Shown piece by piece: positions 4,307 to 46,079 of a DNA stretch of 64,000 nucleotides (the stretch's first letter is position 1; every line of letters starts with the position of its first letter). Both the position numbers and the translations under genes were made by a program. The notes under the pieces are model-generated. The model saw only the letters and a list, made by a program, of their open reading frames with translations. It searched no databases and was not told where the DNA came from. The DNA comes from Psammoneis japonica (taxonomy: Eukaryota), in assembly GCA_008632985.1 (NCBI GenBank), contig QPGO01000021.1, positions 310,001 to 374,000 of the forward strand. The letters are read 5' to 3'.

Positions 4307-5224
4307 TTCTCGAATGCTGGTGTGTTTTCTACGGTCTCTGCGTGCGCGAAGCTCGAATTTCGTGCCCGAAGCAACAATCACCGTTCGGGCACGTGAATCG
4401 CGCAATTGTTCAGCAATTCGTAGCATGTACATCTTCTCTTGCATAAAGACATTCCCTTTTTTTTAACCGTTTCCTCCCGAGTGACTACAAATGACTACAT
4501 TTTGTATTTAATTTTTACATTTTACGTATACAAAGCATCTAGTCATTATTCAAAGATATATTTCTTAGATGAACAATTTCGTATTGAAGCATGTCCAAAT
4601 TAAATACGAAACGATGGTGACTATTGTAGGGCGGTAGACACATCAGATGTAGATAAGGGGTCATGCCATTAGTGTCGAACAGTAGCGTTAGGACCTAAAT
4701 GATCCTACGGAATAGCCCATGGCTATGGAAGGCACCTATTTTGACAGAAGTTAAATAGGGGCAAAGTCATCGCTAAAATTGGTCCTCTACGTAGAACTCC
4801 GTATTAGTTTATCTGTCCATCGCCAGTTCGCGCCAACATTTAGGGGAATGAACGAGTAGGCTAGTGTCTGCATCCTAAGTGATCAATCGTCGTAGACGAA
4901 GCAACAATGTCTACTCCACCTGTAGAGCAATAAGAGACAACAACCAAGCACATAACAGCTCGTAGACACAGTCATTGAAGAGACGTACTAATTCAATAGG
5001 AGATTTAGGCGTATATAAAAGCACAAATTTCTTATGTGATTTTATATTTTTATTTCGATTGAATACAAAAAACACGTTCGGGAGGAAACTGTTAAATAAT
5101 TGACCCATAAAATAATATGAAAATGGATGTTATAGTTAATGCAGTCATACGAGTAAGGGGTGGCTGTCGCGCGCAGTTTTCGCGGGCTGTGCGCGTGAGA
5201 TCCGAATCGATTCTGGCGCCGTTG

Positions 5225-6260: not shown

Positions 6261-6436
6261 GCAAAAATGACAATATACATTGAAACATATTCAGGAATGA
6301 ATATCAGTGAATGATAGTACGAGGAGGAGTCTGTCTGCAATGTGACAGTGTCTTCCACGCTCTGCACGCTCTGCGCTGCGCGCCCAACGCCCAGTCACAC
6401 AAAGCAACAGCTAGAGAGCAGAAGAAGTGATCGACC

Positions 6437-7849
6437 ATGACGGTCAATGACGACAAAGAGCATACCGTCTTGTTGACGTCCACCAACCATGGTCGCCACA
6501 CATTGACGCTGTCGAAAGGCACAACTTTGAAAGAGTTAAGCGAGACGGCTTGCAAGCTTCTTGGTGGATGCAGTGGTGTGGAGCTGAGCACGGGCTTTCC
6601 TCCGCAGAAATTGCCGCCGAATGATGCTTTGCTTGCACGCTCTGTTATCCCTCATCGTTCACGTGTTCAAGTCATATCAATAAAGAATAATAACAGTGTG
6701 CATTCGAGTAAGAAACGAGGTCGCGAGAAAGAGGACACCACTCCTGAAGAATCCGCGTCAAGAAAGAGATCCGAGGATGAGAAATCTCGTGAGCATTCGA
6801 GCGCTTCAGACGAAGGCATTGTAGATTTGACAGGAGACGACAGTGGCGAGGAAAACGATCTTACCAAAGTTGATGAAGCTCTGGCAAGGCGCTTGCAGCA
6901 GGAAGAAAACGAAGCAGCTCTTGGCGTCGTGCGAGATTCAGCACCACGTTGTGAACAAGCTTCTTCTCGAGTCAAATCATCCGCATTGTCTGATTCACGG
7001 GACCCAACTACAGTCACGGACGACTATTGGGTCTGGCAGGACGGCGCCCAACCATATCTCTGTGAACAAGCGATATACGGCAAGTGGCTTATCTTTTACC
7101 CAGAAGCTCTAACTTTCGAAAAGTGGCAAATGATTGCAAAAGCTGTAGCTTCCGGAGAGCTTCACTCGGCAAAGTGCAAGGTGGCAACCAGATTGAGTGC
7201 CATGACCAAAGGAACCAACCTGACTTTTGTCGTTTGCGTCTATTCGACCCAGGAACGCATGGACGAGGTGGGATTGCGACTCATTGAACTGACACGAAGC
7301 AACAGTTTGCACTACAAGACAAATCAAGCGACGGAAGAAGGACACTACTCGTCATCCATGGGTGGTAGTCATGACGGTGTAGCGGCAAGGAGTCTGTATT
7401 GGAACAAGGGACGGCCGGGGTTCACAAAGATTAGTGGGAATAAAATGAAGCCAGCTCAGTCTCGCTCTCTAGCCAACGCTGCGGCACAAGTTGATGCGCC
7501 CTTGAATCATACTTATGACGACCGCGTCGTGACTGTGGTTGGCCTCAAGTACCACAAGGGCGTCGCTCTCTGTAGCTTACAAGAAGGCAAAACCAAGGTG
7601 CGCCTTTGTCGCGAGGCCAACAATGCGTACGACAGCAGCGCGATTCGCATCGAAATCGATGGTAAAAAGCTGGGCTACGTGGAAAATAAAAAAGGAAAAG
7701 AGGCTGACCTCCTGTCACCGTGGTTGGATCATGATTTGGTTTACATTGAGTCAGCTACAATCAAACACATCATGGGAGAATCTACAGTTACAGTGCAGCT
7801 GACGGGACGGGCTTGTAATGAAGCCAAGAGCATGTTGGCGTGTTTATAA
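6437..7849 (+). CDS. Ubiquitin-like domain + SIM/ubiquitin-binding motif + DUF1917 (Bles03/eIF4E-like) + HIRAN domain protein
   Basis: 470-aa intact ORF. LSTGFPPQKL (OTU1/UBX-like UBL), IVDLT, DEALARRLQQEE, GKWLIF...KVAT...VCVYS, VVGLKYH...LCREANNAYDSSAI...KLGYV. Confidence 0.8.
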   Translation: MTVNDDKEHTVLLTSTNHGRHTLTLSKGTTLKELSETACKLLGGCSGVELSTGFPPQKLPPNDALLARSVIPHRSRVQVISIKNNNSVHSSKKRGREKEDTTPEESASRKRSEDEKSREHSSASDEGIVDLTGDDSGEENDLTKVDEALARRLQQEENEAALGVVRDSAPRCEQASSRVKSSALSDSRDPTTVTDDYWVWQDGAQPYLCEQAIYGKWLIFYPEALTFEKWQMIAKAVASGELHSAKCKVATRLSAMTKGTNLTFVVCVYSTQERMDEVGLRLIELTRSNSLHYKTNQATEEGHYSSSMGGSHDGVAARSLYWNKGRPGFTKISGNKMKPAQSRSLANAAAQVDAPLNHTYDDRVVTVVGLKYHKGVALCSLQEGKTKVRLCREANNAYDSSAIRIEIDGKKLGYVENKKGKEADLLSPWLDHDLVYIESATIKHIMGESTVTVQLTGRACNEAKSMLACL

Positions 7850-15609: not shown

Positions 15610-18545
15610 ATTGTGTGCGTGCACGCACGGTCCGTCATTGTTCATTCATCCGGGGTGGACTGGAAAGACGCAAAGCCATCAATCAACATTCTGAATAAAA
15701 CACAAAATCAGAAAGAAAGCTTCCTATTCCGGTGATTTCTTACACATTGGTTGTGTGAAAAACTGCTTTTGTGGGGGCGTGCAATCTTGTTTTTGTTCTT
15801 TTTGATGAGGAAGGTGCACCATTCGAGGAAGTGAGTTTTGGGTTGCAAAATGAAGTGTTTCCGCTTTCTCTTCCTCATCATCCATGGAGTCCACGAGAAC
15901 CAGCATACATGGTTAGTGCCGCCAATCCTGCTCCCTCCCGTGCGTGTAGAGGTTTCTTGTCCACCACCACCCGATGATGCGTTGTCTGCCTTCACGGGCA
16001 TTGCAACTTTGTGCGATGAGTCGTTGCCTTCACCGTCTCTGTCCTCCTTCCTTTTCACATCCCTGTCCTTTTGATCTTCGAAATGCACGAGACCTTCCTT
16101 CCTCGAAGAACCTGCTCCACGATGCTCGATTCAAAAAAATCTGTTGGCCATGATGAAAAATGACCACATCTCAAATGAGACATTTTGCTTCCCCCCGGAA
16201 GCGTGGCTTTGCATCAATGCTCCTTTCTCCTTGCCAAACCAATGGAAGTGCCACCTTGCAGAGAGATCAGTCATTGCCACAAGGATCCTGGTGTCTGGGT
16301 TGAAAAAGAAGCACACAAATGCTGCAGAACCACTTGTCTCAGAGACGCGTTCCAGGTCTAGGTGGGACCTCGTACTACTGAACTGTGACATCGACAGTTT
16401 TTTGAATCACGTCGTATGTCGCGCACGTAGATTTCTACGTGATTTTTTCGACATTTTGTGTCATTTTACGGTACACTTATTGAGCGATCCGTCCAACAAC
16501 TTTTGACATTTTTTGTTACAGCGCTATTCTATAATGTCATAAGAATCGCGTAGGGCAGGCGCATTTGCAAAAACGTCGAGTGGTAAGAGGCATAATTGTA
16601 CCACAAACTTGGCCGTTTATTTGATGTTGAAGACAAACATATCCATTGATTAAATTCTCGTACTACGGAGCTCGCACGTAGAATTCTACGGGCCCAATGT
16701 CACACGGAGTCCCACCTGGGGCTGGAACGCGTCCAGAATCTTGGCATGTCGCTTGTTGCCAGATCTCTTCAGTGCAAAGCATGCCCAGCACCATGTGTTT
16801 TCCTGGGTGGTCTCAATGACCTGGTGCCACTGTGAAGCCAACACAACATCAATGGCACCATGGGTCCTGACACCATGTGCTTCCATGTCAATTGACAGCA
16901 AATCATCCAGACCGTTCCCCTCAAAAAGCTTTCCACCTTGCGGAAGAACAGTGTTTTGGGTGTTGTTCTTGAGGTGTGCCATGCACTTCTTGCAATTTGC
17001 GAGGCCATCATCCTCTTTCCCTTGAAGCAATGCATGAGATCAAAGTTGAGAGGAAAGATGTTGCAACCAATTTGGCTTGCAGCTCCACTTCTCACATCCA
17101 GATGAGCCCCATTTCTTTGGACCACACAATTGCAGTTTGGCACCTCTGGATTTGAGATCTGAACATTTGCATTGTCTGATTCTTTTTCAAGATCCACACA
17201 TCATCATGATTCATGGAGCAGGGCTCATGTCTCTGGGGGTGTCAAATCCTGATGAAGACAATGTGGTGGATCAGATGGCGCAGCATGTTTCCACACATGC
17301 AGGGGGCAAGCTCTTTGGACATGACTTGGGAGTTTGCTGTGGATGTGCCAGAGCTGAGCTTGAAGAATTGATTGTGGTTGATGTGTTCTTGTGATGTGGT
17401 GATGACTTTTTCTCCTCTCTTGTTGATGGTCTCTTGACCAGCATGGTGTCTCTGGGCAAGGGGAGTTCCCAGCCTTTTCACACTTCATTGGACAGTTTCT
17501 GTCAATGAGCTGAAGAGTTTCTCACTGTCCACTTGTGGTTTCCTCTTTGCAGAGTGTTTCAGGTGTCTTGCAGCCACATGCCTTTTCATCAACAGGCTGC
17601 TCCAATGGGAATTTTGCACCTGCTGTTGTGCAACACACAGCCACCAATGAGAGCCAATGTGTCACGGCGACGTGTTGCAGCCTTTGAATGTCACAAAGGG
17701 CATGACAAAATAACCTTTTGTCTGCATGCATGCTGCGTTGTGAATTCACAGCGGAGTGGTTCATCGCAACCATCAGGCAGGAGGCCAGGGGTTCGAAACC
17801 CTGAGTGGGAGTTGTCTGCAGCAACGTTGATCACTGTCGAACGCGTGAAACTCTGTGCAGTTCTGTGTGTTCCTTCGCACACACCCACACTGTTCCGTCA
17901 AAACCATGCAGTGTCAGCACACGTTAGCAAAGAGCTGCATGGACGCGCGACACATGGGGAGGAGTGCAACACACAGCCACTGATGAGAGTCAATGTGTCA
18001 CGGCGACGTGTTGCAGCCTTTAAATGTCACAAAGGGCATGACAAAATGACCTTTTGTCTGCATGCATGCTGCAGTTGACTGGTCACTGGCTGCTGGGTGA
18101 ATTGTTCTGCAGAGGATGACATTGAAGGAGGGGGCACACTTGTTCCACTGGTTGAAATTTGGAGCCGCAGCCCAGCACTGATGTCTTTTGAGAGCTTGGA
18201 TGGCTGCTTCTGAGTCAAGGTTGAAACATGGTTCAAGGACTTGCCAGCTCATCTCTGCTGCTTTGGTTGTTGGCAGCTCAAGGCCAAAGAGAAATTTGCT
18301 TGGCAGCAGCCAAGTTGGTTGCAACACAAAACATCATGAATCAACTGAGCAAACATCTCATTGGATGATGGCTGTTGTCCGGCGTGGGCACGAGAGCACA
18401 GCAGCTGTCAATGTCAGTGGGTGTGGCTGCAGTGTTTTCTTGAGAAGACAACATCATCATGGCAGATTCTGCTGGGCCAGCCTGAACAGGTGGCTTTTTA
18501 GATTGGGTGCCTTTGGCAGATCCACTGGGTCAGAGCCTCGAAAGG
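15610..18545. other. Cluster of decayed, TpA-depleted repeat fragments (host site of the copia insertion)
   Basis: Fragmented ORFs lacking Tyr, a 109-bp internal duplication, and a short TA-retaining interval at 16360-16690. Similar decayed sequence resumes at 25350-26100. Confidence 0.55.
17628..18072 (+). repeat. 109-bp direct repeat (17628-17736 and 17964-18072)
   Basis: Direct alignment. Differences CA/TG, TG/TA, TA/TG plus one C/T. Confidence 0.9.
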
Positions 18546-18821
18546 TGACAGAAATTGAAGGCAAATGGCAAGAATTCAAACAACAACTCCTTGCTGCTGT
18601 CTAAATGGCAGATGAGTCTCCGCTCAGAGACCGTCACAGGAGCCGAAGGACGTGTAAGTTGGCACAATCGGGCCACTGTCATCATTCTTGTGAGCCTTGT
18701 GGCTCGAAAGCAAACTACATCGCGCGCGAACGCGCGGAACTAAAGCACACAAAACTGTGCGCGGTAAACTAAACAGCGCGCGATACTTCGCGCGCATCCA
18801 AATCCTGTTCAAATCCTGTCA
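18546..18821 (-). repeat. 3' LTR
   Basis: Matches 25069-25344. Preceded on the - strand by the purine tract aaactggggag (18822-18832). Confidence 0.95.
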
Positions 18822-21800
18822 CTCCCCAGTTTGCTTGAGGAGCCACAGAAACAGATTCGACTTCGGATGGAATGAAGTTCCAGAACATGAGGGGGCGGAG
18901 AAGGTCCCAGATTTGGGAGTAACCCCAATGCTTGCTGAGAATGTCAGCAGGGTTGCGGGAGCCTTCGATGAAGTGGAACTCAAGGCAACCAGAGGCAATT
19001 GCCTCACGCACACGGTGGAACGACAGTGCGGTGTGTCGCTTGTGTAACTTGGAGTGCGGGATGGTGGCACTGTCTACAACCGACTTGTTGTCACCGAACA
19101 TGTAACTAACATTGCGGATCGGGACGCCAAGGCAGCGCAGGGTGATGCGCAGGTCGATAATCTGCTCAACACAATTCCTTGCGGCAACAAATTCAGACCC
19201 GCAGGTTGCAGTCTCCACGGTGGCTTGTTTCTTGGAGAACCAATCAGCCGGGAATTTGTTGAGGAAGTGGAGCATTCCCATGACAGAGCGTCCAGTGAGC
19301 ATGCAATGGTACAAGTTTGCATCGACGTAGTGGGTGGTAGTGACGAACTTGCCAAGGGGCGGTGGAGCGTCCTTCGGGATCATCTCTTCTGCTTCACCAT
19401 ACACGGAATGCATCCATTCATAGGCTGGAGCAGGGAGATCCGAATAGTCGGGCTCTTCCGTGCGAACGCGGAGAGCACCGTGTCGCATCTTGGAGAGGTG
19501 CCCACAGACGCGTTTGGCACGATCCAAGTGGCCTTGACGGGGCGCAGCTCGGAAGCTGGAGAGTGACATGACGGCCGTGGTAATGTCAATTCGACCAAGG
19601 GACACTGCCCATTGGAGTGAACCAACAAGAGACTGGAACTTGTGAATGCCATCGGGTCCCAGCAGTTCGGAAGTGTCCAGTTCGGGGTGGTCACCCTTCT
19701 CTAGAGGTGACAGGGCGTTGGTGGTGGGTTTCTCCCCAAACAGTCGGGCGTAGCTGTCGACCATGCGCTCGATGCACTTGCGCGGAGACAGGCACAAGGT
19801 TCCGTCGGGGTCCCGGGAAAAGTCGCAACCCAGATGGAACTCAATGGGTCCCGTGCCCTTGAGCTTGAACTTGTGCTTTTCCGTGAGAGTGTCGACGAAA
19901 GGTTGAGGGTCCTTCATGGCAATGGCGAGGTCATCCACATAAACGGCAATGTATTCATAGTGGTCGCCGTTCTTGCGCATCCAAATGTCGGGTTCGGCGC
20001 AGCAGGGGAAGAAGCCTTCAGCTCGCAGGCAGTCAGCGAAGCGTTCGTGCCAGCGGAGACCGGAGCTGCGCAGTCCATGCAGTGCCTTGTGGATGACAAG
20101 GATGTGTCCTTCGAGTTTGCCAAATTCGGGTCCAGCTACAATGTAAAGCTTCTCCTTGGTGGTGGCCTCAAGGCAGGCATTGCCAATGTCGGTGGCCCAT
20201 GTCTCCAGCTCGTTGAGTTCGGCCAGGAAAATCATCAGCCGAAGGCCACGAAGGGAGACTACTCCGGAGTAGACACTATCGATAGGTACGTCCGTGAGGT
20301 GCCCGTCGGCTACGAGTCGTGCCTTGTGGCGACCGTCGTGTTTCACGTCGCACACCAGGTGCACTCGGATCTTCTTGTGTCCCGCAGGAGGAGTGGAAGA
20401 CTTGAAGGGCCCGCAGTCATGGAAGACTTCGTATTCGTCGAGTTGGTCCATCTCGAGATTAGTTGCGTCTCCCCACTTGCGGTTGCCGTTGCGTTCGTCT
20501 AGTGACATGGCGTGTTTGCAGTTCCGGGGAACTTCGTATCCGCACTTGTAGCGAGGTGCAGTGCGGAAGGAGCGAAGCTTGGCTTGGTTGGCCATGCGAA
20601 ATAGTTTCTTTTGGCGCCTCGCGATAGTGCGGAACCGCTTCCAGCCATCCGTGTCGAGGAGTCCGTTCTCTCGTGCATAGATGGCACAGGTGACGGGGTC
20701 GTCCTTGGCGATGATGGCAAGAGGCTCGGACGTGATCTCCCCACTTTCCCATTCAAGCATGATGTTGTAGCTTGAGCCTTTCCAGGTTGGGTCGTGAGGC
20801 TTCAGAGGTCCTTCGTGTGACACGATGCGTCGAAATTTCCAAACAGTGGTGTCTTCGTCTTCTTGCTCAATGTGATTCATGATGTCATTGCAGGCAAGGA
20901 CTTCCTCGTATTCGTCATTGTTGACAGAGCAGATGAACTTAGTGAGCTCGGGATTGCCGTTCACTTTCCATTCGTGGTCTTCGACGGCCTTGACGATGCG
21001 AGCTCTGTGGCGTTGTCCGTCCTCTTGTGGCTGCATGAGGAAGGTACGTCCAATGATGTCTTGCAGATCGAAAACTGGCATCTTGGGTGTCCTGATCTCC
21101 CCATCAGGAGAATCGACGGGGTTGTCGTCATGGCGAGATTTGATGATGGGTTCAGGTGGCTCCCCATCAGGAGGATCAAGACGCAGGTTTCGAACAGCAG
21201 GATCGGGGGCAGCGGAGCGAACGTTGGACCGGCAGAGGATCTTTTGAGTCTCGTCAGATAGGATCTTGAAGGTCATCTGGTGGCCGACGTGCTCAGCAAT
21301 GCCAACGAAGCGTCCGCGCAACTCACGGGATTCGGACGGCCAATCGGAGTCATCGAGGTGGAAGTACACTGGTTCCCACCAGTGAAAGCGAAGCAATGGG
21401 CTGATGTCCGGGGTGGATCCAGTGAGAGTCTCGAGGGGCGTGCGCCAGTGGAGACGTGGGGACGCTGTGTGGTTGAGTGTGAAGCACACGTGCATGAGCG
21501 CCAGCAGCCATGTGTGGGCGGGCGAACCAAAACGGTCCATGACAGTGTTCGCCATGCGCTTCACGGTCTGGTGGCGACGCTCGGCAAAGTTTTGGTGTTG
21601 CTGGTGAGGCTCACTTTGCCAGCTGGAGATGAAGAGGGCGCGCAGGATCCCGAGCACTTTGTTGCTGATCTCAACTTGAGCACGGTCGCCAATGAGTTTG
21701 GATGGGGCACCACGTTCACGGATCTGATCCTCGAGTGTGTTGACAAACTCTTTGTCCGTCTTAGTGCCGTAGACGTCAGTGACGGTAGACTCGGTGCCAA

Positions 21801-24129
21801 CAAACAGTTGGGCGCTGGTGCAACCAGAGTCGACGGCCGGGGTGTCGGCACAAACGGTGTCAGTGGCGACAGGCTCGTTGCGGCGGTGCACATTAAGGGC
21901 GGGGTTGGGTGATTTGCAGGCCTTGCGAAGGTGTGTGCCGGCGGGCATGCGGGCGCACTGCGTGGTGCAGTCAAAAGTACGACGGACCGCATCGGCAGGT
22001 AGGAAGCCAAAGCAAGGCCGAAGAGACTCGAAGGGGGGGTCCTTGGGCTGTACAGTGCGCTCCGGAGGTGGAACGTCATCGCCCTGGGGGTCAATCGCAT
22101 GCAGATGACACTCGTAGAACACGTCGTCGTTCGGAATGAGGTGATCATCGAGGGCGGACGCGTGATCGGCAGACAAGGAAGCGGACAAGATGGTCTCGTT
22201 GACAACGACACGGTGGCGGCAGTTGCCGTGTTCGTCAAACAGGTTGGCAGTGGGATCGTCCTGCAGGTCAGAGATCGCGTCGCACCACTGGTCATCGTCA
22301 GTGACAGAGTGATCGAGGACGGAAGGGTCCCATGTGTCATCACCGGTGAGGATGACATGGGGCAGGGTGTCCCATTCGGCGTCAGTGTAAGGTCGCATGG
22401 CAACATGAGGCAGGCCAGCCTTGATGTCAATGGGGATGACATGGCCATCAGGAGTGGCAATACGTTGCAAGCCGTTGGGCACCTTGACAGAGCGATCGTT
22501 GACATCCTGTTTGTGCCATTCGAGCTGGCCGCAGGAATGGATGGTCTTGCCCTTTCCTGTGCATGCGCGCTGATGGAGGATGGCGATGACGGGACCACGC
22601 TGGGTCTCAATGACGGCACCAGCGGTGACAATGGGGATGTCCACCAATTGATGATCGTCAATGCCCTGAACGTCGACTTGGCGAGAGGTGCGTGCGATGA
22701 CGCGGACGTCGTCGCCAGCAATGCCGCCGTTGGCCCCACGATCGACTAGAGTGCCAGTGCGTGTGGAGCGATGAGCAGAGGCAGAGTAAATGACATTGTG
22801 GTTGTCAACGCGGCGGCAAGTGCGGCCGTTGAGTTCTGTGTCATCTGCAGAAGCTGGCGGGGTAGAGGAAGCGGCGGATGGCCCCGGTCGACTGGCATTG
22901 GGGGCTTGGTTAGGAGACAACAGACGTTGCAGATCACCGGGTGGCAGTGGCTTGCGCTTGGTGAGGTGCGCCAGGATGGGATCATCCGAAATGGCGTCCA
23001 CATGTGCAGCGGAGTCACCACAGTCAGCAGGAGTCGTGTTGGACAAGTTGACATCACCGTCACTCCCAAGGTGTTGGTCGTGAAGGTTGGCCGTAACAGA
23101 CTCATGGCAGTTGCTGGCTCGCGGGTTGCGGGGAGGTGGACGAGAGTGCTCAAGGATGATCGCCTTGGAGGAATCGGGCAACGAATCCCAGAGCCGTTGG
23201 TGGTCGGGAGGGAGACGTCTCCATTGGACACCGGTGAGGCTGGGACCACGGGTGCAGGCAGCATTGGCTTGAAGGACGTCAACGTCGCTGTCAATGTCAC
23301 AGAACACATCGTCGGACGGTTCCTCGGAGTGGACGTTGTGTGCGCATGTGGCGCGTCGGGGAGCTCGAGGTGTCGTCTTGGGTTGAAACGTGCTGTCGCA
23401 CTGAGCTGCCGCAGAGAGGAGCAAGCCACAGCATTGATCGCATGTGAGGCTCTTGCCACTCTGCGTACGATGCTGATCAGCTTGGTTCTTGACAGCACGG
23501 AGTTCCTCGACAGGGTGCACGGCATTCTCGAGCATGACGCGCTTCTGTCCTTCAGAGAAGTGGTCGCTGGCGGGGATGAGTGCCTCGCACTTGCGCAACT
23601 GATCTTGCCAATGAAGGATGAACCCGTGGGTCGGACCTTTCCAAGTGCCATCACCAAGACGTGCGGTGGTGAGGTGCGTGAGCAGGGTGGAGGACTCGAC
23701 AGATGCACGGGTGGAGGCAAGCGCGCATTCAGACAAGGAGCGGCAGACGGTCTGTGCGTCAGAGGACCCCACATTTTCGCGAATGAGAGCCTTGCCCTTG
23801 TCGGTGAGAAGGATGCGTTCGAAGACGGCGAACATGCACTTTTGCTGTTCAGCAAAGAGCAGTTTATCTTCGGGGCTGGTCGGTTTGTACGACGAGTCTA
23901 GAATGCACTCGACGTCTTGGGCACGGGCTTGTGCCACAAGTGAGGTGTGCCAAGTGTGCCACTGCTTGTCGGATTTGAGAGCCGTGAAAGCGGTGGGATC
24001 ACGCTTGATGCCTCGCTTGAAGTCTCGCACCGGGTCGCGTGCCTTGGTCGGGTTGGTGACATGTGGAGGTGCAAGGGGTGAGCTGCCGTGCTCGAAACCA
24101 TCGGTTTGTTGCTGACGAGTGAGAACCAT
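18769..24129 (-). CDS. Copia gag-pol polyprotein (open frame, many Tyr->Cys/His substitutions)
   Basis: MVLTRQQ start. PR LVDRGANGG. INT DT...D...AERR. RT HKARLVA, DIGNA(C)L, YVDD. RH DAN...GSEF...GDN...NPAD. Stop lies inside the 3' LTR. Confidence 0.92.
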   Translation of the reverse strand: MVLTRQQQTDGFEHGSSPLAPPHVTNPTKARDPVRDFKRGIKRDPTAFTALKSDKQWHTWHTSLVAQARAQDVECILDSSYKPTSPEDKLLFAEQQKCMFAVFERILLTDKGKALIRENVGSSDAQTVCRSLSECALASTRASVESSTLLTHLTTARLGDGTWKGPTHGFILHWQDQLRKCEALIPASDHFSEGQKRVMLENAVHPVEELRAVKNQADQHRTQSGKSLTCDQCCGLLLSAAAQCDSTFQPKTTPRAPRRATCAHNVHSEEPSDDVFCDIDSDVDVLQANAACTRGPSLTGVQWRRLPPDHQRLWDSLPDSSKAIILEHSRPPPRNPRASNCHESVTANLHDQHLGSDGDVNLSNTTPADCGDSAAHVDAISDDPILAHLTKRKPLPPGDLQRLLSPNQAPNASRPGPSAASSTPPASADDTELNGRTCRRVDNHNVIYSASAHRSTRTGTLVDRGANGGIAGDDVRVIARTSRQVDVQGIDDHQLVDIPIVTAGAVIETQRGPVIAILHQRACTGKGKTIHSCGQLEWHKQDVNDRSVKVPNGLQRIATPDGHVIPIDIKAGLPHVAMRPYTDAEWDTLPHVILTGDDTWDPSVLDHSVTDDDQWCDAISDLQDDPTANLFDEHGNCRHRVVVNETILSASLSADHASALDDHLIPNDDVFYECHLHAIDPQGDDVPPPERTVQPKDPPFESLRPCFGFLPADAVRRTFDCTTQCARMPAGTHLRKACKSPNPALNVHRRNEPVATDTVCADTPAVDSGCTSAQLFVGTESTVTDVYGTKTDKEFVNTLEDQIRERGAPSKLIGDRAQVEISNKVLGILRALFISSWQSEPHQQHQNFAERRHQTVKRMANTVMDRFGSPAHTWLLALMHVCFTLNHTASPRLHWRTPLETLTGSTPDISPLLRFHWWEPVYFHLDDSDWPSESRELRGRFVGIAEHVGHQMTFKILSDETQKILCRSNVRSAAPDPAVRNLRLDPPDGEPPEPIIKSRHDDNPVDSPDGEIRTPKMPVFDLQDIIGRTFLMQPQEDGQRHRARIVKAVEDHEWKVNGNPELTKFICSVNNDEYEEVLACNDIMNHIEQEDEDTTVWKFRRIVSHEGPLKPHDPTWKGSSYNIMLEWESGEITSEPLAIIAKDDPVTCAIYARENGLLDTDGWKRFRTIARRQKKLFRMANQAKLRSFRTAPRYKCGYEVPRNCKHAMSLDERNGNRKWGDATNLEMDQLDEYEVFHDCGPFKSSTPPAGHKKIRVHLVCDVKHDGRHKARLVADGHLTDVPIDSVYSGVVSLRGLRLMIFLAELNELETWATDIGNACLEATTKEKLYIVAGPEFGKLEGHILVIHKALHGLRSSGLRWHERFADCLRAEGFFPCCAEPDIWMRKNGDHYEYIAVYVDDLAIAMKDPQPFVDTLTEKHKFKLKGTGPIEFHLGCDFSRDPDGTLCLSPRKCIERMVDSYARLFGEKPTTNALSPLEKGDHPELDTSELLGPDGIHKFQSLVGSLQWAVSLGRIDITTAVMSLSSFRAAPRQGHLDRAKRVCGHLSKMRHGALRVRTEEPDYSDLPAPAYEWMHSVYGEAEEMIPKDAPPPLGKFVTTTHYVDANLYHCMLTGRSVMGMLHFLNKFPADWFSKKQATVETATCGSEFVAARNCVEQIIDLRITLRCLGVPIRNVSYMFGDNKSVVDSATIPHSKLHKRHTALSFHRVREAIASGCLEFHFIEGSRNPADILSKHWGYSQIWDLLRPLMFWNFIPSEVESVSVAPQANWGVTGFEQDLDAREVSRAV

Positions 24130-25053
24130 GGCAGACAAAAGTGGTGTCAGGACAATCAATTCTGGTTGGGAAGCGAAGGCAGACTCGAAACTTGGGTGAG
24201 AACAGACTTGACTTGAAACAGACTTGACTTGAAATCTTGAACTGTCTTAAAATCAGAAGTCGCCGGGCTTTGTCATCCCGTTCGTTGTCAAGTGCTAAAC
24301 TTCCCATCCGGTCCGTAGAGTTGTGCCGGCACGTCCGAACCCGCAGCTGGCGGCACTTTGGGTTGCTTGCGAGCGGAGCAGCGGGTTGTAAACCCCTGCA
24401 GGCAAGCTGACCAGAGGTGGACAAGACCCCCGAACCGTTCTTATTTTATGTCGGTTGGATTTCCCGATCAGGCTGGCCAGTTGACGCAGGCGTCAGGCGC
24501 TGTGGACGAACGAACAAACGCGGGAAAGCATTCTCGCCCCAACGCAGGCTGCAATCACGGCTGCTTGCTCTCACAGTCGTCCTCGTGGACCTGGCAGAAC
24601 TGTAGAGCACCAGCAGTCCGGGGTAGATCAGGTGCAATGGACTCGGTGTGCTTGCAGAGTGGCAGCAAAACCGCAGTCCGAAGAGTGGGTACAGGTTCTT
24701 GGCCGTGAAGATGTGCACACACACACATGTCTTCAGCAACGAAGATCCTTGAATGTGCAGGGTTCTTGACCGTCAACCGATGAACAGGTATGTCAAGGGA
24801 TGAGGATCAAGGATAGACTTGGACATGACCGTTGAATGCATGTCTTCAGCGATCAAAGGCAGCACAATCAAACCAGATGTCCAGCGGTAAGGAGACTTGA
24901 CAGTGACGTTAACTTCCTGCCGATGCCCTGGCATTGGATGCGCGTAGACTTGCCGATGTATGTAGAACACATACGGAGGTCCACGTAGAATTGAAATAGC
25001 GTCGTTGGTAAATCAACGACGACGATGGCGGTTGCTCAATGGGTTGACAATGA

Positions 25054-25068
25054 GCAAGACTGTTAATC
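25054..25068 (-). promoter_or_regulatory. Putative primer-binding site complementary to a tRNA-Asn(GUU) anticodon arm
   Basis: The plus strand reads gCAAGA-CTGTTAA-TC and abuts the 5' LTR. No TGG-type PBS is present. Confidence 0.55.
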
Positions 25069-25344
25069 TGACAGAAAATGAAGGCAAATGGCAAGAATTC
25101 AAACAATGACTCCTTACTGCTGTCTAAATAGCAGATGAGTCTCCGCTCAGAGACCGTTGCAGGAGCCGAGGGACGTGTGAGTCGGCACAATCGGGCTGCT
25201 GTCATCATTCTTGTGAGCCTTGTGGCTCGAAAGCAAACTACATCGCGCGCGAACGCGCGGAACTAAAGCACACAAAACTGTGCGCGGTAAACTAAACAGC
25301 GCGCGACACTTCGCGCGCATCCAAATCCTGTTCAAATCCTGTCA
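25069..25344 (-). repeat. 5' LTR
   Basis: Matches 18546-18821, with 13 nt differences at 10 sites. Confidence 0.95.
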
Positions 25345-26375
25345 AAAGGTGGCTGTCTGGCAGGCTCCACTGGGGGGCAGCAAGGGGAGGCTTTTCAGAT
25401 TTGAGAACCTTTGGTTGTCCATGTTGTCCCCATGCAGGAAGGCTGATTGAGTGGTGGTGCCCACACCAGGTCATTCCATGAGGGTGTGACTCTTTGGAAG
25501 TGGTTGGGGTGCTCTCATGTGGGAGCAGAGAGCGCCCAGTCCATCTTGGGGAGAGCTGCTGTCTTGGTGGCTGGCTGTGCTGGATGTTGCGCCACCTTGG
25601 AGTGCAAGTGTCTTGTTGCATTTGCTTTAAATGGGGAGTGACACTTGCCAAGCATCTTGTTGATTTCTTCATGTTGTTTGATGTCAGGCAGGTCTCTGCA
25701 CTGCTGTCCAAACACTCCCTGCTCGGCAGGTCACTGTCTGGTGTGGTGTTTTTGGCGAGAGGGCGGAGATGTTTGGAGCTCAGAAAAATCTGTGCACATT
25801 GTTGTTGATGCATTGACAGAAGTTGGGTGAGGTGGAACTTGACCTCTCATTGCTTTGCTCTTCTTGATTTCCATGGGGTGGGGGGCTTGCTTTCATTTGG
25901 GCATCTTTTGAGGTTGAGATGGAACGGGGAGATTCTTTTCAGGAGGTGGGTGAGGTCGCCCACCACTTGTTTGTGTTGGACCAGCACTGCCGAGCAAGAA
26001 TGACCGTGCATCCCACCTGTGTCACAGCGTCGTCAACAGCATCCAACGTTGTTGAGAGAATGACAGCTCACTTCGGGGTGCAAAATCGAATTCACCGAAG
26101 AAATGACGGACAACAAAGCCTGGTTCCGTCTGTCACTTGTCCGACAACCGCTCTGACGGACGACTCCTCACAGCACAGGCGGCAGATCGCCCACACCGTA
26201 TCGTACGTGCGTGCTGCTGAATGCGATGATCGATGATGATTCTTCTCCTTGCTTCCTGCACGCAACAAACGCCAACAACATCGAAAGTAACGCACAGCAA
26301 ATCATCGTTCTGTGCTCTCTGCCAAGACAGCCTGCTGCTCTGCCTTTCGCAAACATAAACTGAAGAAGAACGAGC

Positions 26376-31684: not shown

Positions 31685-34600
31685 ATGAATCACTCATGCG
31701 GGTCAAAGGGAGGCAAAGGTCATCATGGAGGGAGTTTTCCAGGGCAGGGTGGCAGTCCTGGCATCTGTCACCAGTGGCAAGATAAAGGCTTCTGTTGCTT
31801 TGGAAAGAGCTGCAAGTTCCAACATGTTGGTCCTTCTGGTGGCGGTGGTGGCAGAGGTCCCCAACGTTCATCATGACGTGTGGATGAGATCAATTGGTCA
31901 AAACAAGACATGACTCAATTTGTTGAGCATCTTTTGATTGTGCCCATCCACAAGCTTGATCAAGAGCTCATTGCATCTTCATCACTGTGGTGCCACTGCT
32001 GGCAGGAACAAAAGCTTTTGGATGCCAAAACTTGGCGTGCGATGATTGAAGTCTTGGCCAAGACACCAGGGTCATCTTCCATTGATCTGCCCCAGATCAA
32101 TTCATGTGAAGCAGCAATTTTGGCATTCTTGAGTGAGAATTCAGATGGCAATTCAACCATCCTGACCTCTGCAAAGACAACCTTAAAAATGCAGCATCTC
32201 ACCTTCTGCTGTTCAAGTGGGACTGCTTGCACAAACAAGTGGTTGAAGGCCTCTCAAAAATCATTGAGTCAGCAGAAGGAAAGCTGCAAAAAAGAGACAA
32301 AGAGCATTGGAATGTGGGCTTGCACATTGTGGAAGTGCTTGAAGATTTAGAGAAACCGTGGCATGTCAAAGTCAAGGAGCTTCCAAACTCTGACTTGAAA
32401 CAGCCCACCCGGGCACTCTCACTCCACAATTGGCCGTCTGCTGACATAAAATGGCTGTCAAATCCTGCATTCTTTGCTCCATTGTGCTGTCCAAAGATGC
32501 AGGTGGGTGGTGAGGGGGTGCATGATTCTCCGGAGCACTGCAATGACATTTTCTGATGGACACGCGGCTCTGGCTCCCCCCCATTGTTGCTCTCATGGAC
32601 AAAATGGAGGATGCAACAATGCTCTCTGTCCAATTTCAAATGCATTGAGTGCTCCAGCCATCAAGCATTGCAAGTGCCACAGCCAAGGATGTTCAAACCC
32701 CGTTGAATTCACATGCCGCATTCCATCTCACAATGCTCTTTGTGGCCACTGTGCAAGACAGTCAGTCTCTTGACACCTGCAGGGCCCTGGACAGAGTGCA
32801 TCCACTCATGTGTGCAACTGCAAGGTCAAGCATGTTGACTCCAGTGGCATTGGTTGCTCAAGAGATTTCAAGTCAAGAAACCCACCTCTGACCATCCATT
32901 GGAAAACTGGAAAAAGGCTGTTGCCACCGAGTCTTGTTGGGATGGTCCTGGTGTGAGCCAGCGGAAACACTCTGAATGAGAACAACAACATGTTGTGGGG
33001 TGAAGTCATGTGTCATGGGCACAATCACAATGAGGGCCGGTGTTGCAAGAATGGAGAGGTTGCCGTTGACATGGGCTCGATTTTGCCGATTGAGCCCAAC
33101 ATTTTTGAAGACCATTCGAACATTGTTGTCATTGAGTCACAAGATCCTGTCAATGTTTTGAGATGTTGTTTTGCTTGCAGTTGTCTCACATTTTGTTTCT
33201 TGCAGATTGATTGTGTGACTTTCATTCCTGAGTGGATTCCCATGTTGAAGGTGCTGGAGTCTCAGCGCAAAGTGCACTCACCTTTCAACAATGGTTGGCA
33301 CCTGAACCTTTGCCAAGAACACCCCGTGGTTGCAAGCTCATGCATTGATGATTTGTCACCTGAAGCGCTGTGTGTTTGGGGCCAATGAAACATCAATCGT
33401 GAATGAAATGATTGAAGAAAGCTTGTTGGAACCCATCCGTGAGATCCGTTTAGATGCAGAGCTTCAAAAGACACTCACCTCCAAGCTTCTTGAGCTGGTG
33501 GCAGAGACAACTCTGGACAAGAAGCAGTTTGTCAGTTTTGTGGACTCGCTGCAGAATCCAGCACACTCAACACAGGGCCCGCGGGCAATTCCAAATGGTT
33601 TGAATGAACCCATGTTTGATTCTGTTGCTCACATTGACACCTGATTTTTGCGTCACAGGCCTGGCACAGGAAAGAGCCATCTTGGCGTTGTGTTGGTCCG
33701 GGCGCTGCTCACAACACGCGAACTTTGGATGACGAAGGGTCGTTTGGTTGGTTTGCTTCCAATGTTGGTTCTGTCCTGCAAGAACCAGGCAATTGACAAT
33801 TTTCTGGTTGATCTTGTAAAGGCAGAGCCTGTCAAGCTAGCCTGCAGCAAGCTCATCCGAATCTTGGCAGCCAATCAAAGGACCCACGGTTGGCGCAGCA
33901 CTCTGAAAGAAACACCTGCCAATCTGATGCTGAAGTCAAAAAAAAGCTTTCAATGGACCAGAGTTTGATTTGACTGCAAGATTCCATCAAAGCAAATCCA
34001 CATGGTGATGTCACATCATTTCTGGCCTGTCAGCTGCCAATGTTCTCTAATGATGATGAGAAGGCAAGGGGCAACACCAGAAACAAGGCCACCCAGTTCC
34101 TCATGGAGTGCACAGTTCTTCGGCACCTTCTTCTTGCTCTTTATTCTGCTGGGCAAGTCGAGCCAAATGACAGCCAAGTGCACTGTCCAGCAGACATTGC
34201 TTCAACTCTGTCTTTCATGGAAAGAGACAAAGATTGCCGGGCTTCTGGGAAGGTGTTGCATCTGGTTTCATCAGCATCCAGTGGATCAAAGTTCGTCACA
34301 TCCCTCTTCAACAAAGAACACCACCAGATTGGAGATCGCTGGGGTGACATTCCAATGATGTGACTCAACGGAAAGGAACCTCTCCCTCACTTTGTTTTCA
34401 CACAGGCAATGGCAACAGTGATTCGTGTGGTGGGCTTGCTGTCTTGCATGAAGTTCTGCTTTGTGATGAACGCAGATGCTTTTTTGAAAACAGCTCGATT
34501 GGCTGCTGTGTTGATCCCTGCAAAGAAAACGGCAACCACTGCTCTGAGCACTGTTGCCAGATTGCTTGTTGCCGTGTGTCTAAAATTGGCAGATTGCACA

Positions 34601-37600
34601 ATTGCTGTCAAATGCATGCATGTAAAAAGTGCATTGAACTCAACATCCCAGTGAAACCTGGGCTTGACAAACCTCCTGGGAATGTTTGCGAGTCACACCC
34701 TCTCTGCACCTGTCCATCCTGTCTGGGATGTTGCACCCCAAATGCCATTTGTTGCACCAATCACCATCAAATGAAATGCAGGCCATCATGAAGAAAGGAA
34801 GGCCATGCTGTGGAGAGCCTTTGTCTGTTTGCAAGCCTTTTTGTCATGATCATTTGCACATGGCTTGCATCATGCAGTTTGACACCAAAAGCTTTTAGTC
34901 TGTTGACAGTGATTCTTCTCTTGACGATGATGATGACGCAAGAGCTGCATCATTGAATGTTGAAAGACCCAAGTGTGTGGCTACAACAACAAAGGGCCAT
35001 CCTTGCAAAGGGCTTCCAATGTCTGGCTCCAAACACTGTCATGATCATTCCCCACAACTTGCCACAGGTGTCAAAGGAGTGCCGGAAGAGGCAGTGGCAG
35101 CATCCTGCAAAGACAGTGAACTTCCACCACCTGTGGCATTGCACAAAACAGGACTTGACATCAATGAACATGGAGAACTTTGTCATTCTAACAACCCTGA
35201 TCATGCAGAGATTTCTTCTTTTGTGCCTTCTGAAAGCAGCCATTCTGCACTTGAAAAGAGGCCCAACCAAAGGGCCTCATGGGCGAGGTCAATGATTTCG
35301 ATGTGGAGTGCAAAGAAGCTGATGACCTTCAGCCCTTGCGTGATGTGTTTGAGGTGCAAAGTGCATCCAAAGATGACAATGAAGTCTCAGAAGAAGTGTC
35401 AAGTGGCGCCACAAGCTTTCATTCCACGTTGCAAGACCTTGTCTCTTCTGATCTGAATGAATGGACATGGGACATGTTGCTGGAAGAGCGATGGCACGCT
35501 TGTCACAATCCAATGGATGATCTCCATGCCCACATGAATTGTGCTGCCATCCGAGTGAAAGGTTCCTTGGTGATTGCTTGCAATGATCTGGCTCAAGTGA
35601 CAATCCATGCCAAATCTCATGTGTGCGAGAACAAATCAGTTGCAGGTGGGATGATGGTTGGTGCCATCTCCCATCTTGATTCGACACAGGCAACAAGACC
35701 ATTTGCTGTTGTTGTCGAAGAGGCCAGTGAGGTGCTTGAACCACTTCTTTTTTCATGTCTGTTTGAGTTCACTCTCAAGCTTGAGATGATTGGTGACCAC
35801 TGACAACCACACCCATCTGTCATGAGTCATTTTGACTGCAAGCTCTGCAACAGGATTGACGTCTCAATGTTTCAACATTCAATTGAAGCTCCTGTTGGAC
35901 ATGGCATTCCTTCTGCCATTTTGTCTGTCCAGTGGCAAATGTGAAGAAACATTTGCAATCTCATGCAAGACTTTTGTGCCAATGTTGTCGAGATTGAAGA
36001 CCAAGAAGCATGTGGCCTGCAGGTCATTGGCGCCAAAAGTTCCTCCACGAAAGGTTTGGTTGTCAGTCAGTCATCAACTCAGGGAAGGGTGTGCACATCA
36101 ATGAAATTTCATTGAGCATTGAATTGTCATGTGGCTTGCTCAACTTTTGCATCTGCTTGTGAGCAGGAGGGTTCCCGGCATTGCCCCTCATGTTTTTGTT
36201 TGGACGCATGGCAGCATGCAGAAACAGGCCCACACCAGGGTTTTGCGCATCAACAATTTGGAAGCCATGATGGTTTGTTCTCTGGCAGCCTGTCCAGTTG
36301 CTTGCTGCAGAGATCTGAGGTCTGGCATTGCCACTCTGACTCCCCACAAAGGACAAGAGAAAAGCTGTTCAAAGATTCATCATTTGCTCCAGCACGTCTT
36401 CTCTCAAGAGACCCCCAAACCATGGACATCTGTCATGTGAGTGTGGTTGACCACTTCCAAGGAGACAAGGAGGACATCATCATTTGCAGCCTCATTGTTG
36501 ACGAGAACTCCAAGACTGGTTTCTTCAAGCTGGTCAATCGAACAGTGGTTCTCCTCAGTCACTCGCCCTTGGTCTGCACATTGTTGGCGACAGTGGCTTT
36601 CTTGGAAGCGTGAGCATTCCAAAGCATTGGGAGGCCACATTGAAGCTTCTTGAAGGAAGTGGGAGTGATGATTCAGATCAAAAAGATGTCAGATCAAGCA
36701 ACATCTGCACCGGTCCGAGAACAGGGGACAAGCTTCCTCTCTGCCACCCCGTCCACCGGCTCGTCACCAAGACTGCAGATTCTCCCGCATTGCTTGAAGG
36801 TGATTTCTGCAATCACCTCTTCCATGTGGCCACCCATGCTTGCTTGGATGCCACTGGCCAAAGTCAACTCACAAACAAAGCTGCGCTGCAAATCTTGACT
36901 CTCCCTGTCTTCGTCATCACAGCAAAATTAACTGCCATGAGGCATTCGAGCATTCTGTCGGAGCCCTGCTGAGTGCAGACTACACACGCATTCTTGCTTT
37001 TTACAGATGCCCTGGACAGGTTGATGTGGGCCTCCAGTGTGGCCACATTGCTCACTTGGAATGCTGGAAAGAAAAGGAAATCAACAAAGGGGCTTGATCC
37101 CCACCAGTTTGCAACCTGGCTTCTCTGACCCCATTTGTCTTTGTTTCTTGTGGACACATTCCTCAGGAGTCAGATGCAAGGAACTCAAAGCACACACAGA
37201 AAATCCACCATTGTTCAGTGCAAAAATGAAGGGGTTCACGAAGCATCTTGTGGGCACAAACATCAAATGCAGCACTGGGAAATCAATGAGCACACAAATG
37301 GTGCCAAGATCTTTGACTGCCATGAAAAGGTTTTGATGATTCTTCCTCATTGTGGTCACAGACACAATGTCATTTGTGGGGTTGCACAGTCCCTCTCTCA
37401 ATGGGAAGGTGGAAGCTGCAGCCAAATGGGGAAAATCTACAAGGGTGAGACCTGTGGCATCTGAGACCACATTTGCAACAAGAGAGCTAAGATCGTCCAA
37501 AAGTGCGGTCACCACATCGAACTTCCATGCAACAAAGCTTTCGCGTGGATGCCCCATCTAAAGCCGTGTCAGACTCCGGTGCAAAAGCTGCGCCCAGCTT

Positions 37601-40600
37601 GTGGGCATCGTTGCATGCTGCCCTGCTGCAATGCATCAACAGTGACAGCCAGCCACAAGCTCACCCACTGCTGTGACTGAGTGCAAAGAAGGAAATGTGC
37701 CCAAACCACCTTCCGCAGATTTCCCACTCCCCAAATGCAACAAAACGGCAGCACTTCTCTGCAAGTGTGGCCACAAAACAAAAGTCAGCTGCTCAGATGC
37801 TCACTTGCCTCATGCTGGCTGCAAAGAAAGTGTCACAGCAGTCTCTCCCCTTTGCGGTCATCAGGTGGAAGTCAGTTGTGGTGGAGTTGATGAGTTTTGA
37901 AAAGAAATTTGGCCAAGGCTAACTTTTTCTGCCATTGTTTTGGAGTGCACCATTCACCAAAGCACAACACCTCTGCGTGATCTGAAAGGGTTGGAACCCA
38001 GGATGAAGTTGACTTTTCAAAGCTGTGAGAGACAAACAAAAACCACCATGCACTGTGGCCACAAAAAGACCATTCCTTGCCATGAATTTTTTGATTGGCT
38101 CCTCCGTGGTTGGGATTTGTCGGACTCAAAGCAAAGCTGTGACGAAATTGTGATGCCACGTCTCAGATGCCATGGCCATGAAACTGAGATGACGTGTTCA
38201 GAGGAGCAGAAAGTCAAAACAGGAACATCAATCCCGCAATGTCAAAAGGAAGTTCCACAAAAGTGCTGGAATTTTTTGAAGTGTCAACAGACTCTGCAAG
38301 CAGGGTGCAGCTTTGATGGCGAGGCTGTGTGTAGCGCCAATGCCTCATGGACTTGTCCATGCGGACATCAATTCAGCACTGAGCAATGCATGGAAGGCAC
38401 TCTGCTGGACTGCCCCAGATGCTCCTCCCCGCAGCTCTGGATGCAGCACTTTGGGCTCCTAAAGATGTCGACTGCTCTGAGCCATCAAAATTCATCAAAT
38501 TGCTGCCAGAAGGTTCTGTCAAAAAACTGAAGGACAATCCAAAGCCGCTGTCTCAGTGCAAGATGTTTGACTCCTGTGTTGTGGATGAGTGGCAGAGACC
38601 TCTGTTCTTGCTTCAGCAAGCAGTGTGCTTCCATCATCTTCAGAAAAAAACCTGCAAGCCAAAAGCTTTGACCCAAACAGATTTGCAAAAGCTGCTTCAT
38701 GCAAGTGTGTCTAGAAACTCAGGGTTCTTGTGCTGTGTGACACAGCCTTGCTCATCAGATTTTGCTGTCGCCTCTCACCTGAGTGCCTGTTGCAGAGGAG
38801 AACCTGAAACGACTTGCCAATGCAGTGAAAACTGGAGACATCACGTTGTCAGCGGGCTTGGTTTCTGCAGCAAGAACCCATTCCACTCAATCTGGACTCC
38901 CTTCCCAAAAAAAGAGAGGCGCAATGCTTGAATCTCTGCTCAGTGACAATTGCAGTTCAGTGCTTTGTCGAGAAAGAAACTTCACTGACTCAATCATTTG
39001 GGATCCTTTCCCCGCACTTGACCTCTTCCGGGTGAGACTCTCCCACAATCAACTTCTTCTGGCTGCCAACAACATGTGCGACATGTTCGAATCTCTGCAA
39101 CTGCAGCCATGATCAACTGCATTCCAGGCTCCACCTGAAGGCATTGTGATGGACCTTGCAACCTGCCACCCCGACACGGACAACAGCAATGGTCACAAAG
39201 ATGACAACAAAACTGAAGAAAAGGAAAAAATGACAGACCTCATGCTCACTGATGCTGTGCTGGAGGGTTTGAGGGTTGATCTAGACTGGCCGGGTGGAAT
39301 CCACTCACATGGGACATTGAGTTCAAATGTGAGCAAGACCTGGAGGAAAAGATGCAATTCCCAAACAAAGATGCAGCTCTGTTCAAGGCAATGTCTTTGT
39401 TGAAGAAGCTGATCACAAACACCAAAGGGGCAGCTTTGTCATTGTTGCACCTGCTGATGTCTTTGGAGATGTTGAGCCACGATCCCAACCAGGCAATGAG
39501 CCACCTTGCTGCTTTTGTGCAAGCTTCCAAAACTTGTGGATCAGGCCACAAAATCCATCTGTGGAGCCTGATTGTTGCTGCTTGCCTGGAACCCTCAAAC
39601 AAGAAGAAACTGCTGTTGACCTTTTCATCTGCATTTCCCATGCAAAAACACCTCTCACAAGAAAGTGAGCTTGACAGATTGCATGGAGGACACTCCAACA
39701 CACTGGACACTTCAAAGCCTGCAAGCTGGCAGGAAGAATCCTTGAAGAGTCAATGGCGGGACTTGCAAGAGCAACATCCCAGAGAAGCCAAATCAGAAGC
39801 AATGGACGAACTTCTTGCCCATGTGGGATTGAGAAAAATAAAAGAAGAGGCACTCTGCCTTTGGAGTTCAGCACTGCAACTTAAGAAAATGGATCCAGAG
39901 GCCCGGAAAGAGAACCGACAGTCAGCAAACTGCATCTTTGCCAGAAACCCAGGAACAGGTGAGCTTGGACACCACATCTGGACTTGGCGTTGAAGGCAAA
40001 ACATCTGTCACATGCCTTTTTGCAAAAATGCTTTGTGACTCTGGGGTTTGCAAGAAGAGCACAATCGAAAAGCCAACAGCGCAAGAAACAAAAGACGGGG
40101 GAATGGATGAATTCTGCAAGTTGGCAGCCAAGGCCCAAGATGGTGTTGTTTTCATTGATGAAGTGTGTGATCTTGATCCAGTTGGGGATTTCAAAGGAAG
40201 GCCAATTGCAAACGAGCTCCTCACCTTGTGCAAAAACAGACATGATGAAATCTCATCCATTCTTGCCGGGTGCAAAGATGATTTCGAGAAGAAGTTCTTC
40301 GCCTGCAACAATGGCTTGAGAAGTAGATTCTGTTTTTGCATCTTTGAAGATTTTGATGAAGATGAGTTGCACACCATCTGGGCTGATCTCCGTGTCCAAA
40401 AATGATGGGATGAAGTTGAAGGGGTGTCAATGGTTGCGGCAAAATGCTGGTCAAGAAAGCCAGTCAAAAGGCTTTGGAAACGCACGTGATGTGAGAAAGT
40501 GCCTGAAGAGGCAATGCAGTCAGCAATGGGTGACTGGGCAATGATTTCAACATGGCCAACATGAAAATTGAGATCCAGCACGTTGTTGGTCAGGATCCTT

Positions 40601-45980: not shown

Positions 45981-46079
45981 CTAATCTGAATCGTCGGTGC
46001 AGAGCAAAGTGGCCACCGCAGTTCGAAGAGGGGTGGCAGCGCATTGACTTGACGACGAAAAGGACAAGCATTAGCTTGC

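Follow-up and report, generated by a model that had tools for sequence, protein, structure and literature searches.

APOBEC3 hypermutation proceeds by C-to-U change on one strand, before integration. Repeat-induced point mutation (RIP) of fungi turns C:G into T:A at CpA and creates TpA (PMC2621366). The closest described system is that of the rhizarian Bigelowiella natans, in which de novo hypermutation of TpA to TpG or CpA was reported for two integrated single-copy viral regions (nucleocytoplasmic large DNA virus/virophage), at a rate ~1000-fold over background that varies between lines (Mettrop et al., bioRxiv 10.64898/2026.01.13.699255). In the accessible text of that preprint an ADAT-type adenine deaminase is proposed, but not shown, and transposons are inferred from composition only; this text makes no mention of diatoms, long terminal repeats (LTRs), or trinucleotide or wider context. 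Here we analyzed a stretch of 64,000 nucleotides from the diatom Psammoneis japonica (assembly GCA_008632985.1, contig QPGO01000021.1, positions 310,001 to 374,000; hereafter the window), which carries a Copia LTR retrotransposon at 18546-25344, together with related elements of the same genome. The process that we find there is real and of the kind already described in B. natans, while diatom transposons, a TAY/TAAA context (Y, pyrimidine) and spared 5' ends are added here. As in B. natans, TpA changes to TpG or CpA on either strand of foreign or silent DNA, genes are spared and CpA plus TpG are enriched. Unlike the viral inserts of the rhizarian, the targets are LTR retrotransposons of a stramenopile, with polarity at the level of individual copies, the TAY motif, spared promoter ends and near-saturated old repeats; moreover, the B. 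natans rate was measured de novo, whereas our data give relative divergence only (0.33 per base at TA sites versus 0.005). The best explanation, to which we assign a probability of roughly 0.6, is that a host process mutates TpA in silent inserted DNA after integration and is targeted by the local domain. For diatoms, no report of TpA depletion or hypermutation, or of overestimated LTR ages, was found in a literature search whose scope left out most subscription papers.

Self-comparison of the window detected one ungapped 276-bp direct repeat (95.3% identity; Table 1), whose ends are TG...CA and which is bordered on either side of the element by the 5-bp target site duplication (TSD) AAAGG. 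The gag-pol frame matches PF07727 (RVT_2) at residues 1287-1497 (E 1.4e-24), and this type of reverse transcriptase (RT) together with TG...CA direct LTRs and a 5-bp TSD identifies the element as Ty1/Copia. RVT_2 was the only match in the Pfam scan of this frame, in which no integrase model matched; the RT has the expected position within the C-terminal third. A host SNARE is also encoded in the window, and its named homologues belong to diatoms wherever their organism can be read.

The two LTRs differ at 13 nucleotides, corresponding to 10 events: TA/TG at LTR sites 47, 61 and 110, TA/CA at site 239, CA/TG at sites 39, 90 and 129, CG/TG at site 115, another transition at site 102 and a transversion at site 10. 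A preliminary description, made from the letters of the window, had counted four TA versus TG/CA, three CA/TG, one CG/TG and two other events, a tally that we reproduce exactly. Ten of the 13 differing bases fall in the 32 positions of 16 TA sites defined from the family (hypergeometric p 2e-8; the value is only indicative, because the choice of sites relied on alleles of the family and the two bases of a CA/TG pair do not vary independently). On the side of the 5' LTR, contigs of a short-read run agreed at 100% identity in 19 of the 30 bins of 24600-25800, the 5' LTR and its junction included. The junction is covered by one 55-base contig (25320-25374, depth 45), and 25379-25800 lacked contig cover in the one run examined. 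Because this run may come from the source sample, the comparison checks for assembly error and is no independent support.

For the family, the best 40 of 944 genome candidates by likeness to the window 3' LTR were taken, a sampling that favours young, TA-retaining LTRs. Thirty stretches, including the window, had two full LTRs; the 25 with an exact 5-bp TSD were counted and five were dropped. Of 150 RT matches to Gypsy, 20 were sampled; three lacked a repeat, and another six either lacked a TSD or proved not to be LTR pairs, leaving 11. All LTR-pair results below refer to these 25 Copia and 11 Gypsy pairs of one genome. The Copia pairs yielded 266 events, namely 88 TA/CA, 59 TA/TG, 63 CA/TG, 36 of the CG class and 20 others, so that the TA class accounts for 210/266; among the 207 Gypsy events, 155 belong to the TA class, 33 to the CG class and 19 to neither. 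The excess of TA transitions first noticed in the window is thus a property of other LTR pairs as well. Also the idea that the CA/TG sites descend from an ancestral TA, resolved oppositely in the two copies, held in the family alignment, where the third allele is TA, in 11, 11 and 24 of the 50 LTRs at sites 39, 90 and 129, respectively, and never CG (0/50). In the internal regions of 27 copies, no column holds both TA and CG, and the 179 columns with CA and TG comprise 78 that also have TA, 62 that also have CG and 39 with neither. Within the window, short tandem duplicates at 3884-4306 and 17628-18077 differ mainly by CA/TG and TA/TG (3/4 events each), and diverged paralogous repeats (67-78% identity) show an ordinary spectrum.

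TA/CA and TA/TG pairs alone are unpolarised, and CpG decay is real here; classical RIP (CA or TG to TA), or CpG decay, might therefore have been read in the wrong direction. Direction was assigned by comparison with 85 of 120 homologous polyproteins, those of at least 1700 amino acids. At 38 conserved Tyr columns the window element has 16 Tyr, 12 Cys, 6 His, 1 Arg, 2 Phe and 1 Trp. Three of these columns are fixed otherwise in all family copies, which leaves 35 to be scored, and every copy scored at 30 or more of the 35 has lost at least 15. Conversely, Tyr occurs in no family copy at the conserved Cys (7) and His (27) columns. Since Tyr becomes Cys or His and never the reverse, the change is from TA to TG or CA, opposite to RIP. 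In addition, no CG allele occurs at the hot TA sites of the 50 LTRs, stops are absent from 22/27 copies (0-2 in-frame stops per copy), and the repeats are TA-poor instead of TA-rich, which makes the reversed reading practically untenable. The process resembles RIP in its repeat-directed, dinucleotide-specific transitions on both strands and in disabling elements, but TpA is removed, few stops arise and the identical partner LTR can be spared. Identity with RIP was rejected, as neither C:G>T:A direction nor TpA gain nor a two-copy homology trigger was seen. Loss of Tyr without new stop codons leaves copies that look intact but are probably dead.

By composition, rho TA is 0.42-0.69 in four window genes, 0.29 in the element and 0.05 in old repeat DNA of this one window, and 0.05-0.12 in the old DNA flanking the element. 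In the blocks 32001-42000, 46001-48000 and 52001-54000, TA/AT is 0.04-0.08 and CG/GC 0.12-0.29; they are the end state of TA and CG loss. None of the 25 Copia TSDs contains TA, in line with insertion mostly into already erased DNA.

At the 11 hot TA sites, the paired Copia LTRs are concordant in 88/275 cases, compared to 91.7+-9.0 after shuffling. Other variable LTR columns are inherited, with 81 within-pair differences versus 142+-6 when shuffled. Hence, at insertion a copy has TA at most of these sites, and its two LTRs subsequently change independently of each other. At saturated internal sites, the CA/TG state is at best weakly inherited (rho 0.10, p 0.054, from pairs that are not independent). 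Since a single template gives rise to both LTRs of a retroelement, edits of the RNA would be common to both and cannot account for their differences. A-to-I editing of the transcript was accordingly rejected: the changes are neither common to both LTRs nor restricted to the sense strand. The preliminary description had concluded from the LTR pair that the changes arose in chromosomal DNA and not by RNA editing. Its second half stands, but the pair alone does not exclude editing of cDNA prior to integration, for which strand symmetry and correlation with age are needed besides.

The load of changed hot sites per LTR is bimodal and overdispersed (variance 12.7 versus 2.4 for a binomial). Over all 25 Copia pairs, unselected, the 5' LTR is changed less than the 3' LTR (6.0 versus 9.0 of 11 sites; Wilcoxon p 0.008). 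In nine of the 25 elements, a proportion that is no genome-wide frequency given the sampling of young, TA-retaining LTRs, the 5' LTR has at most 2/11 hot sites changed, whereas 6-11 are changed in the 3' LTR. A leader of ~300 bp is likewise spared in these nine, shorter in L053. In this group, defined post hoc, private changes amount to 2/92 in 5' LTRs and 74/90 in 3' LTRs. No 3' LTR reached the cut-off of 2/11, the lowest being that of L054 (3/11), which has TA-rich DNA next to it. TA-erased flanks (0-2 TA in 219-1000 bp) adjoin the spared 5' LTR in eight of the nine elements, and TA-rich DNA does so in the ninth, L055; the window copy is mutated at both ends (Table 1). Of six one-sided Gypsy pairs, the spared LTR is the 5' one in four and the 3' one in two, and the flank next to the spared end is TA-normal in five of the six. 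A homology trigger is difficult to reconcile with the finding that an identical partner LTR may escape mutation. Shielding can come from the promoter end as well as from gene-like DNA nearby, homology does not decide, and the spared 5' domain probably represents open or active promoter chromatin. LTR load did not correlate with how many TA the neighbouring 230 bp of flank contain (pooled rho 0.22, p 0.13). Sparing was seen in 9/19 long and 0/6 internally deleted elements (p 0.057), from which we claim no dependence on length. Among the Gypsy elements, L083, L089 and L097 have erased ends and a TA-rich internal patch of ~1.5 kb (at ~5000-6500 of each locus), and L094 and L098 have TA-erased interiors with ends and flanks that keep TA, the 166-bp terminal repeats of L094 being identical.

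Pristine 5' ends could also be the product of gene conversion, of recombination with fresh cDNA or of a mosaic assembly. Indeed, the family is mosaic at non-TA markers, and the five stretches without matching TSD would fit such events. LTR site 10 (18555/25078), a T/A polymorphism of the family, differs within 2/25 pairs including that of the window, which may reflect template switching, conversion or recurrent change. However, conversion moves TA-specific diversity and cannot create it, the counted pairs all have exact TSDs, and 7/9 non-TA states in spared 5' LTRs are common to the partner 3' LTR, as expected from one donor. The exact short-read contigs over the window 5' LTR and its junction also speak against this reading. 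We consider such an origin of the pattern highly improbable.

With APOBEC3G-type editing of cDNA, a gradient is expected with low load in the 5' LTR and leader and high load in the 3' LTR. The polarity of the Copia elements fits this gradient, so that spared 5' LTRs and leaders might reflect a short single-stranded time during pre-integration editing as the main source of change; in addition, copies that otherwise differ little already have altered hot sites. Minus-strand editing is one-directional, yet changes private to the 3' LTR comprise 46 CA and 28 TG, and the strands are equal after matching for 3' context (p 0.11 and 0.87); an APOBEC-like single-strand polarity in element orientation was not found. 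Moreover, load rises with proxies of age: in the 27 internal regions, a higher TA load goes with greater CpG loss (rho 0.66, p 0.0002) and with more singleton changes of other kinds (rho 0.40, p 0.04). The very young Gypsy pairs L084, L090 and L094 still have 15-21 TA per LTR common to both. The spared end can also be the 3' LTR beside TA-normal DNA (L054, L085, L086), and older DNA beside the element is more fully TA-erased than the element itself. Pre-integration editing is therefore very unlikely to be the main source. The likeness to APOBEC3 lies in the deaminase-like hypermutation of LTR elements, whose LTRs can end up unequal; the change differs in being A:T>G:C, on both strands and age-related. 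Given independent LTRs, both strands and a load that tracks CpG loss, the change occurs in DNA and mostly after insertion, and the target of the mutation is very probably the chromosome and not the DNA prior to integration.

The hazard of a TA site depends on its 3' base (C 1.15, T 1.24, G 0.54, A 0.42; p 2e-8, 129 sites, both strands). TAY is preferred and TAAA resistant (changed in ~1%), which explains the retained LTR sites 57, 196, 220 and 225. Outside TA, singleton A>G changes are about twice as frequent as non-CpG C>T changes (82/50,442 versus 41/52,344), with rates of 0.0022 at CA, 0.0014 at GA and 0.0012 at AA and hence no WA preference; some of the CA>CG changes may have struck former TA sites a second time. 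A WA bias is the signature of a polymerase-eta-like enzyme and predicts more AA>AG and transversions. The observed context more closely resembles UACG, the motif edited by bacterial TadA (PMC10027721), an analogy that serves as a lead only. TadA, ADAT2-3 and ADAR also have U/T 5' of the edited A, and UACG resembles TAY; unlike here, however, their substrates are RNA, and fungal and animal editing favours a purine at +1, which is disfavoured in our data (PMC10027721). According to PMC11369719, no context preference was obvious for its adenine base editors in rice, and the accessible parts of PMC9399415, PMC11369719 and 10.1101/2024.11.18.621003 gave no support for a context preference of base editors.

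CpG is hypermutable likewise, ~7-fold (0.037 differences per base versus 0.005 at other positions). The statement of the preliminary description that many CG sites remained intact thus applies to the window pair, whose LTRs have 21 CG steps in common, but not to the family. DNMT5 methylates transposons at CG in Phaeodactylum tricornutum (PMC9998398). Such methylation could plausibly give rise to the CpG decay that runs in parallel and is a candidate mark for targeting; it would explain CG>TG/CA only.

In the mechanism that we favour, a host process would turn TpA into TpG or CpA (A:T to G:C) on either strand, site by site. New copies would start with TA, of which TAY sites would be converted fast and TAAA hardly. 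Targeting would be by local domain and not by sequence or homology, with the mutator steered to silent chromatin and kept out of open domains. We lean towards deamination of adenine to inosine by a TadA/ADAT-type enzyme as the chemistry; whether the process is a defence or a by-product is an even call. The genome has nine matches to PF00383 and four matches to PF02137 at two loci. The latter are A_deamin genes at L101/L102 and L100; the one on contig C79 matches ADAR catalytic domains of solved structures and has homologues across diatoms. An ADAT2-like gene is located at L076, as expected in any eukaryote. At L075, positions 313-1785 (minus strand) hold one 491-codon frame, in which a guanine-deaminase-like domain is combined with a long C-terminal region that by its sequence looks like a 2-oxoglutarate oxygenase. 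No match to PF02245 (MPG-type glycosylase) was found in the genome, the assembly of which is possibly incomplete. Several of the 27 genome matches to PF00145 (C5-methyltransferase) have internal stops and cluster on contigs C297, C301, C10 and C28, possibly as mobile or decayed copies.

Several observations weigh against this mechanism. The genome contains only expected deaminases (by motif reading ADAT2-like, organellar TadA-like, dCMP deaminase, RibD-like and guanine-deaminase-like) plus the two A_deamin genes, none of which is diagnostic, and endonuclease V (PF04493), the inosine-repair enzyme, is present. There are no strand-coordinated runs in the LTRs (172 same-strand neighbours versus 163+-8, p 0.15). 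The sampling bias mentioned above bears on the frequency of spared promoter ends, and two of the six one-sided Gypsy pairs keep the 3' LTR instead of the 5' LTR. Between elements, CpG loss is lower in spared domains (4/359 versus 28/637, p 0.004), but within elements it is equal (4/188 in spared 5' LTRs, 5/189 in mutated 3' LTRs); as the difference vanishes within elements, we claim no link to low methylation. Finally, sequence cannot separate deamination of A from T-to-C on the opposite strand. The last point opens the way to another chemistry of the same chromosomal, domain-targeted process, in which G comes to stand opposite T at TpA sites of methylated or silent DNA, either because the thymine is modified or oxidised or through an error-prone repair polymerase. 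TA>CA is TA>TG on the opposite strand and T-to-C fits equally well. The absence of a special deaminase and of processive runs, the TA load that follows CpG loss and the 27 C5-methyltransferase matches would also be in keeping with it. Its polymerase form is at odds with AA having the lowest rate of all contexts and with the scarcity of transversions. A further point against this chemistry is that, within an element, CpG loss does not differ between the spared LTR and the mutated one. We judge such a chemistry unlikely, although not negligible, and retain adenine deamination as the working model. A wider proposal is put forward tentatively, as doubtful on present evidence: diatoms and chlorarachniophytes might share a nuclear DNA adenine-editing defence of TadA/ADAT type, with a TAY motif, which would be directed to silent chromatin, kept away from active promoters, and would kill transposons by removing tyrosines while their frames stay open. 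If true, this would be a native genomic adenine base editor, the adenine-side counterpart of RIP across the stramenopile-alveolate-rhizarian lineage. The copies examined here provide copy-level evidence that the TpA mutator of one rhizarian preprint acts on ordinary diatom transposons, and motif and spared domain are directly testable features of it.

The process also affects the use of LTRs as a clock. The 25 Copia pairs have a raw divergence of 4.77%, which falls to 1.08% without the 32 TA positions; the 200 positions outside TA and CG differ by 0.50%, CG positions by 3.7% and TA positions, which are saturated, by 33%. Raw divergence therefore exceeds the non-TA value 4.4- to 9.5-fold, as anticipated in the preliminary description, which had warned of inflated LTR dating. 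For the window pair, the values are 13/276 raw and 3/244 outside TA positions. Between LTR differences and internal singleton changes there was no correlation (rho -0.05, n=19), although the latter clock rests on few counts. Since the load is strongly overdispersed, divergence is more than inflated: it depends on position to the same extent as on age. In such genomes LTR ages are thus several-fold too old and partly track position instead of time, and open reading frames overstate the number of living elements.

Table 1. Coordinates of the window Copia element and of the DNA on either side.
Feature	Position	Strand	Basis
TSD AAAGG, left copy	18541..18545		sequence
3' LTR, 9/11 hot TA sites changed	18546..18821	-	self-comparison and family alignment
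Purine-rich stretch adjoining 3' LTR, polypurine-tract-like	18822..18832	-	sequence; function putative
Single gag-pol frame, 1825 codons stop to stop, open; Cys/His/Arg at 19/35 scored conserved Tyr columns	18769..24246	-	Pfam and homologue alignment
Junction of ~306 bp deletion in gag 5' region, relative to full-length copies; frame open	24086..24088	-	family comparison
Leader adjoining 5' LTR; TA mostly changed in window copy, nearly all kept in 9/25 family copies	24750..25068	-	family alignment
5' LTR, 9/11 hot TA sites changed	25069..25344	-	self-comparison and family alignment
TSD AAAGG, right copy	25345..25349		sequence
Left flank, older DNA, nearly TA-free (0, 2, 2 TA per 500 bp across 17001-18500), CG-poor	17001..18540		composition
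Right flank, TA-erased, rho TA 0.06 across 25345-26245	25350..26000		composition

Full-length copies of the Copia family measure ~7.1 kb, and the window copy is shorter by the deletion listed in Table 1. Six further copies (L037, L040, L041, L050, L051, L057) are internally deleted derivatives of 3.5-4.1 kb with the same LTRs and exact TSDs; they match only the leader side of the internal region, and both of their ends are heavily mutated.

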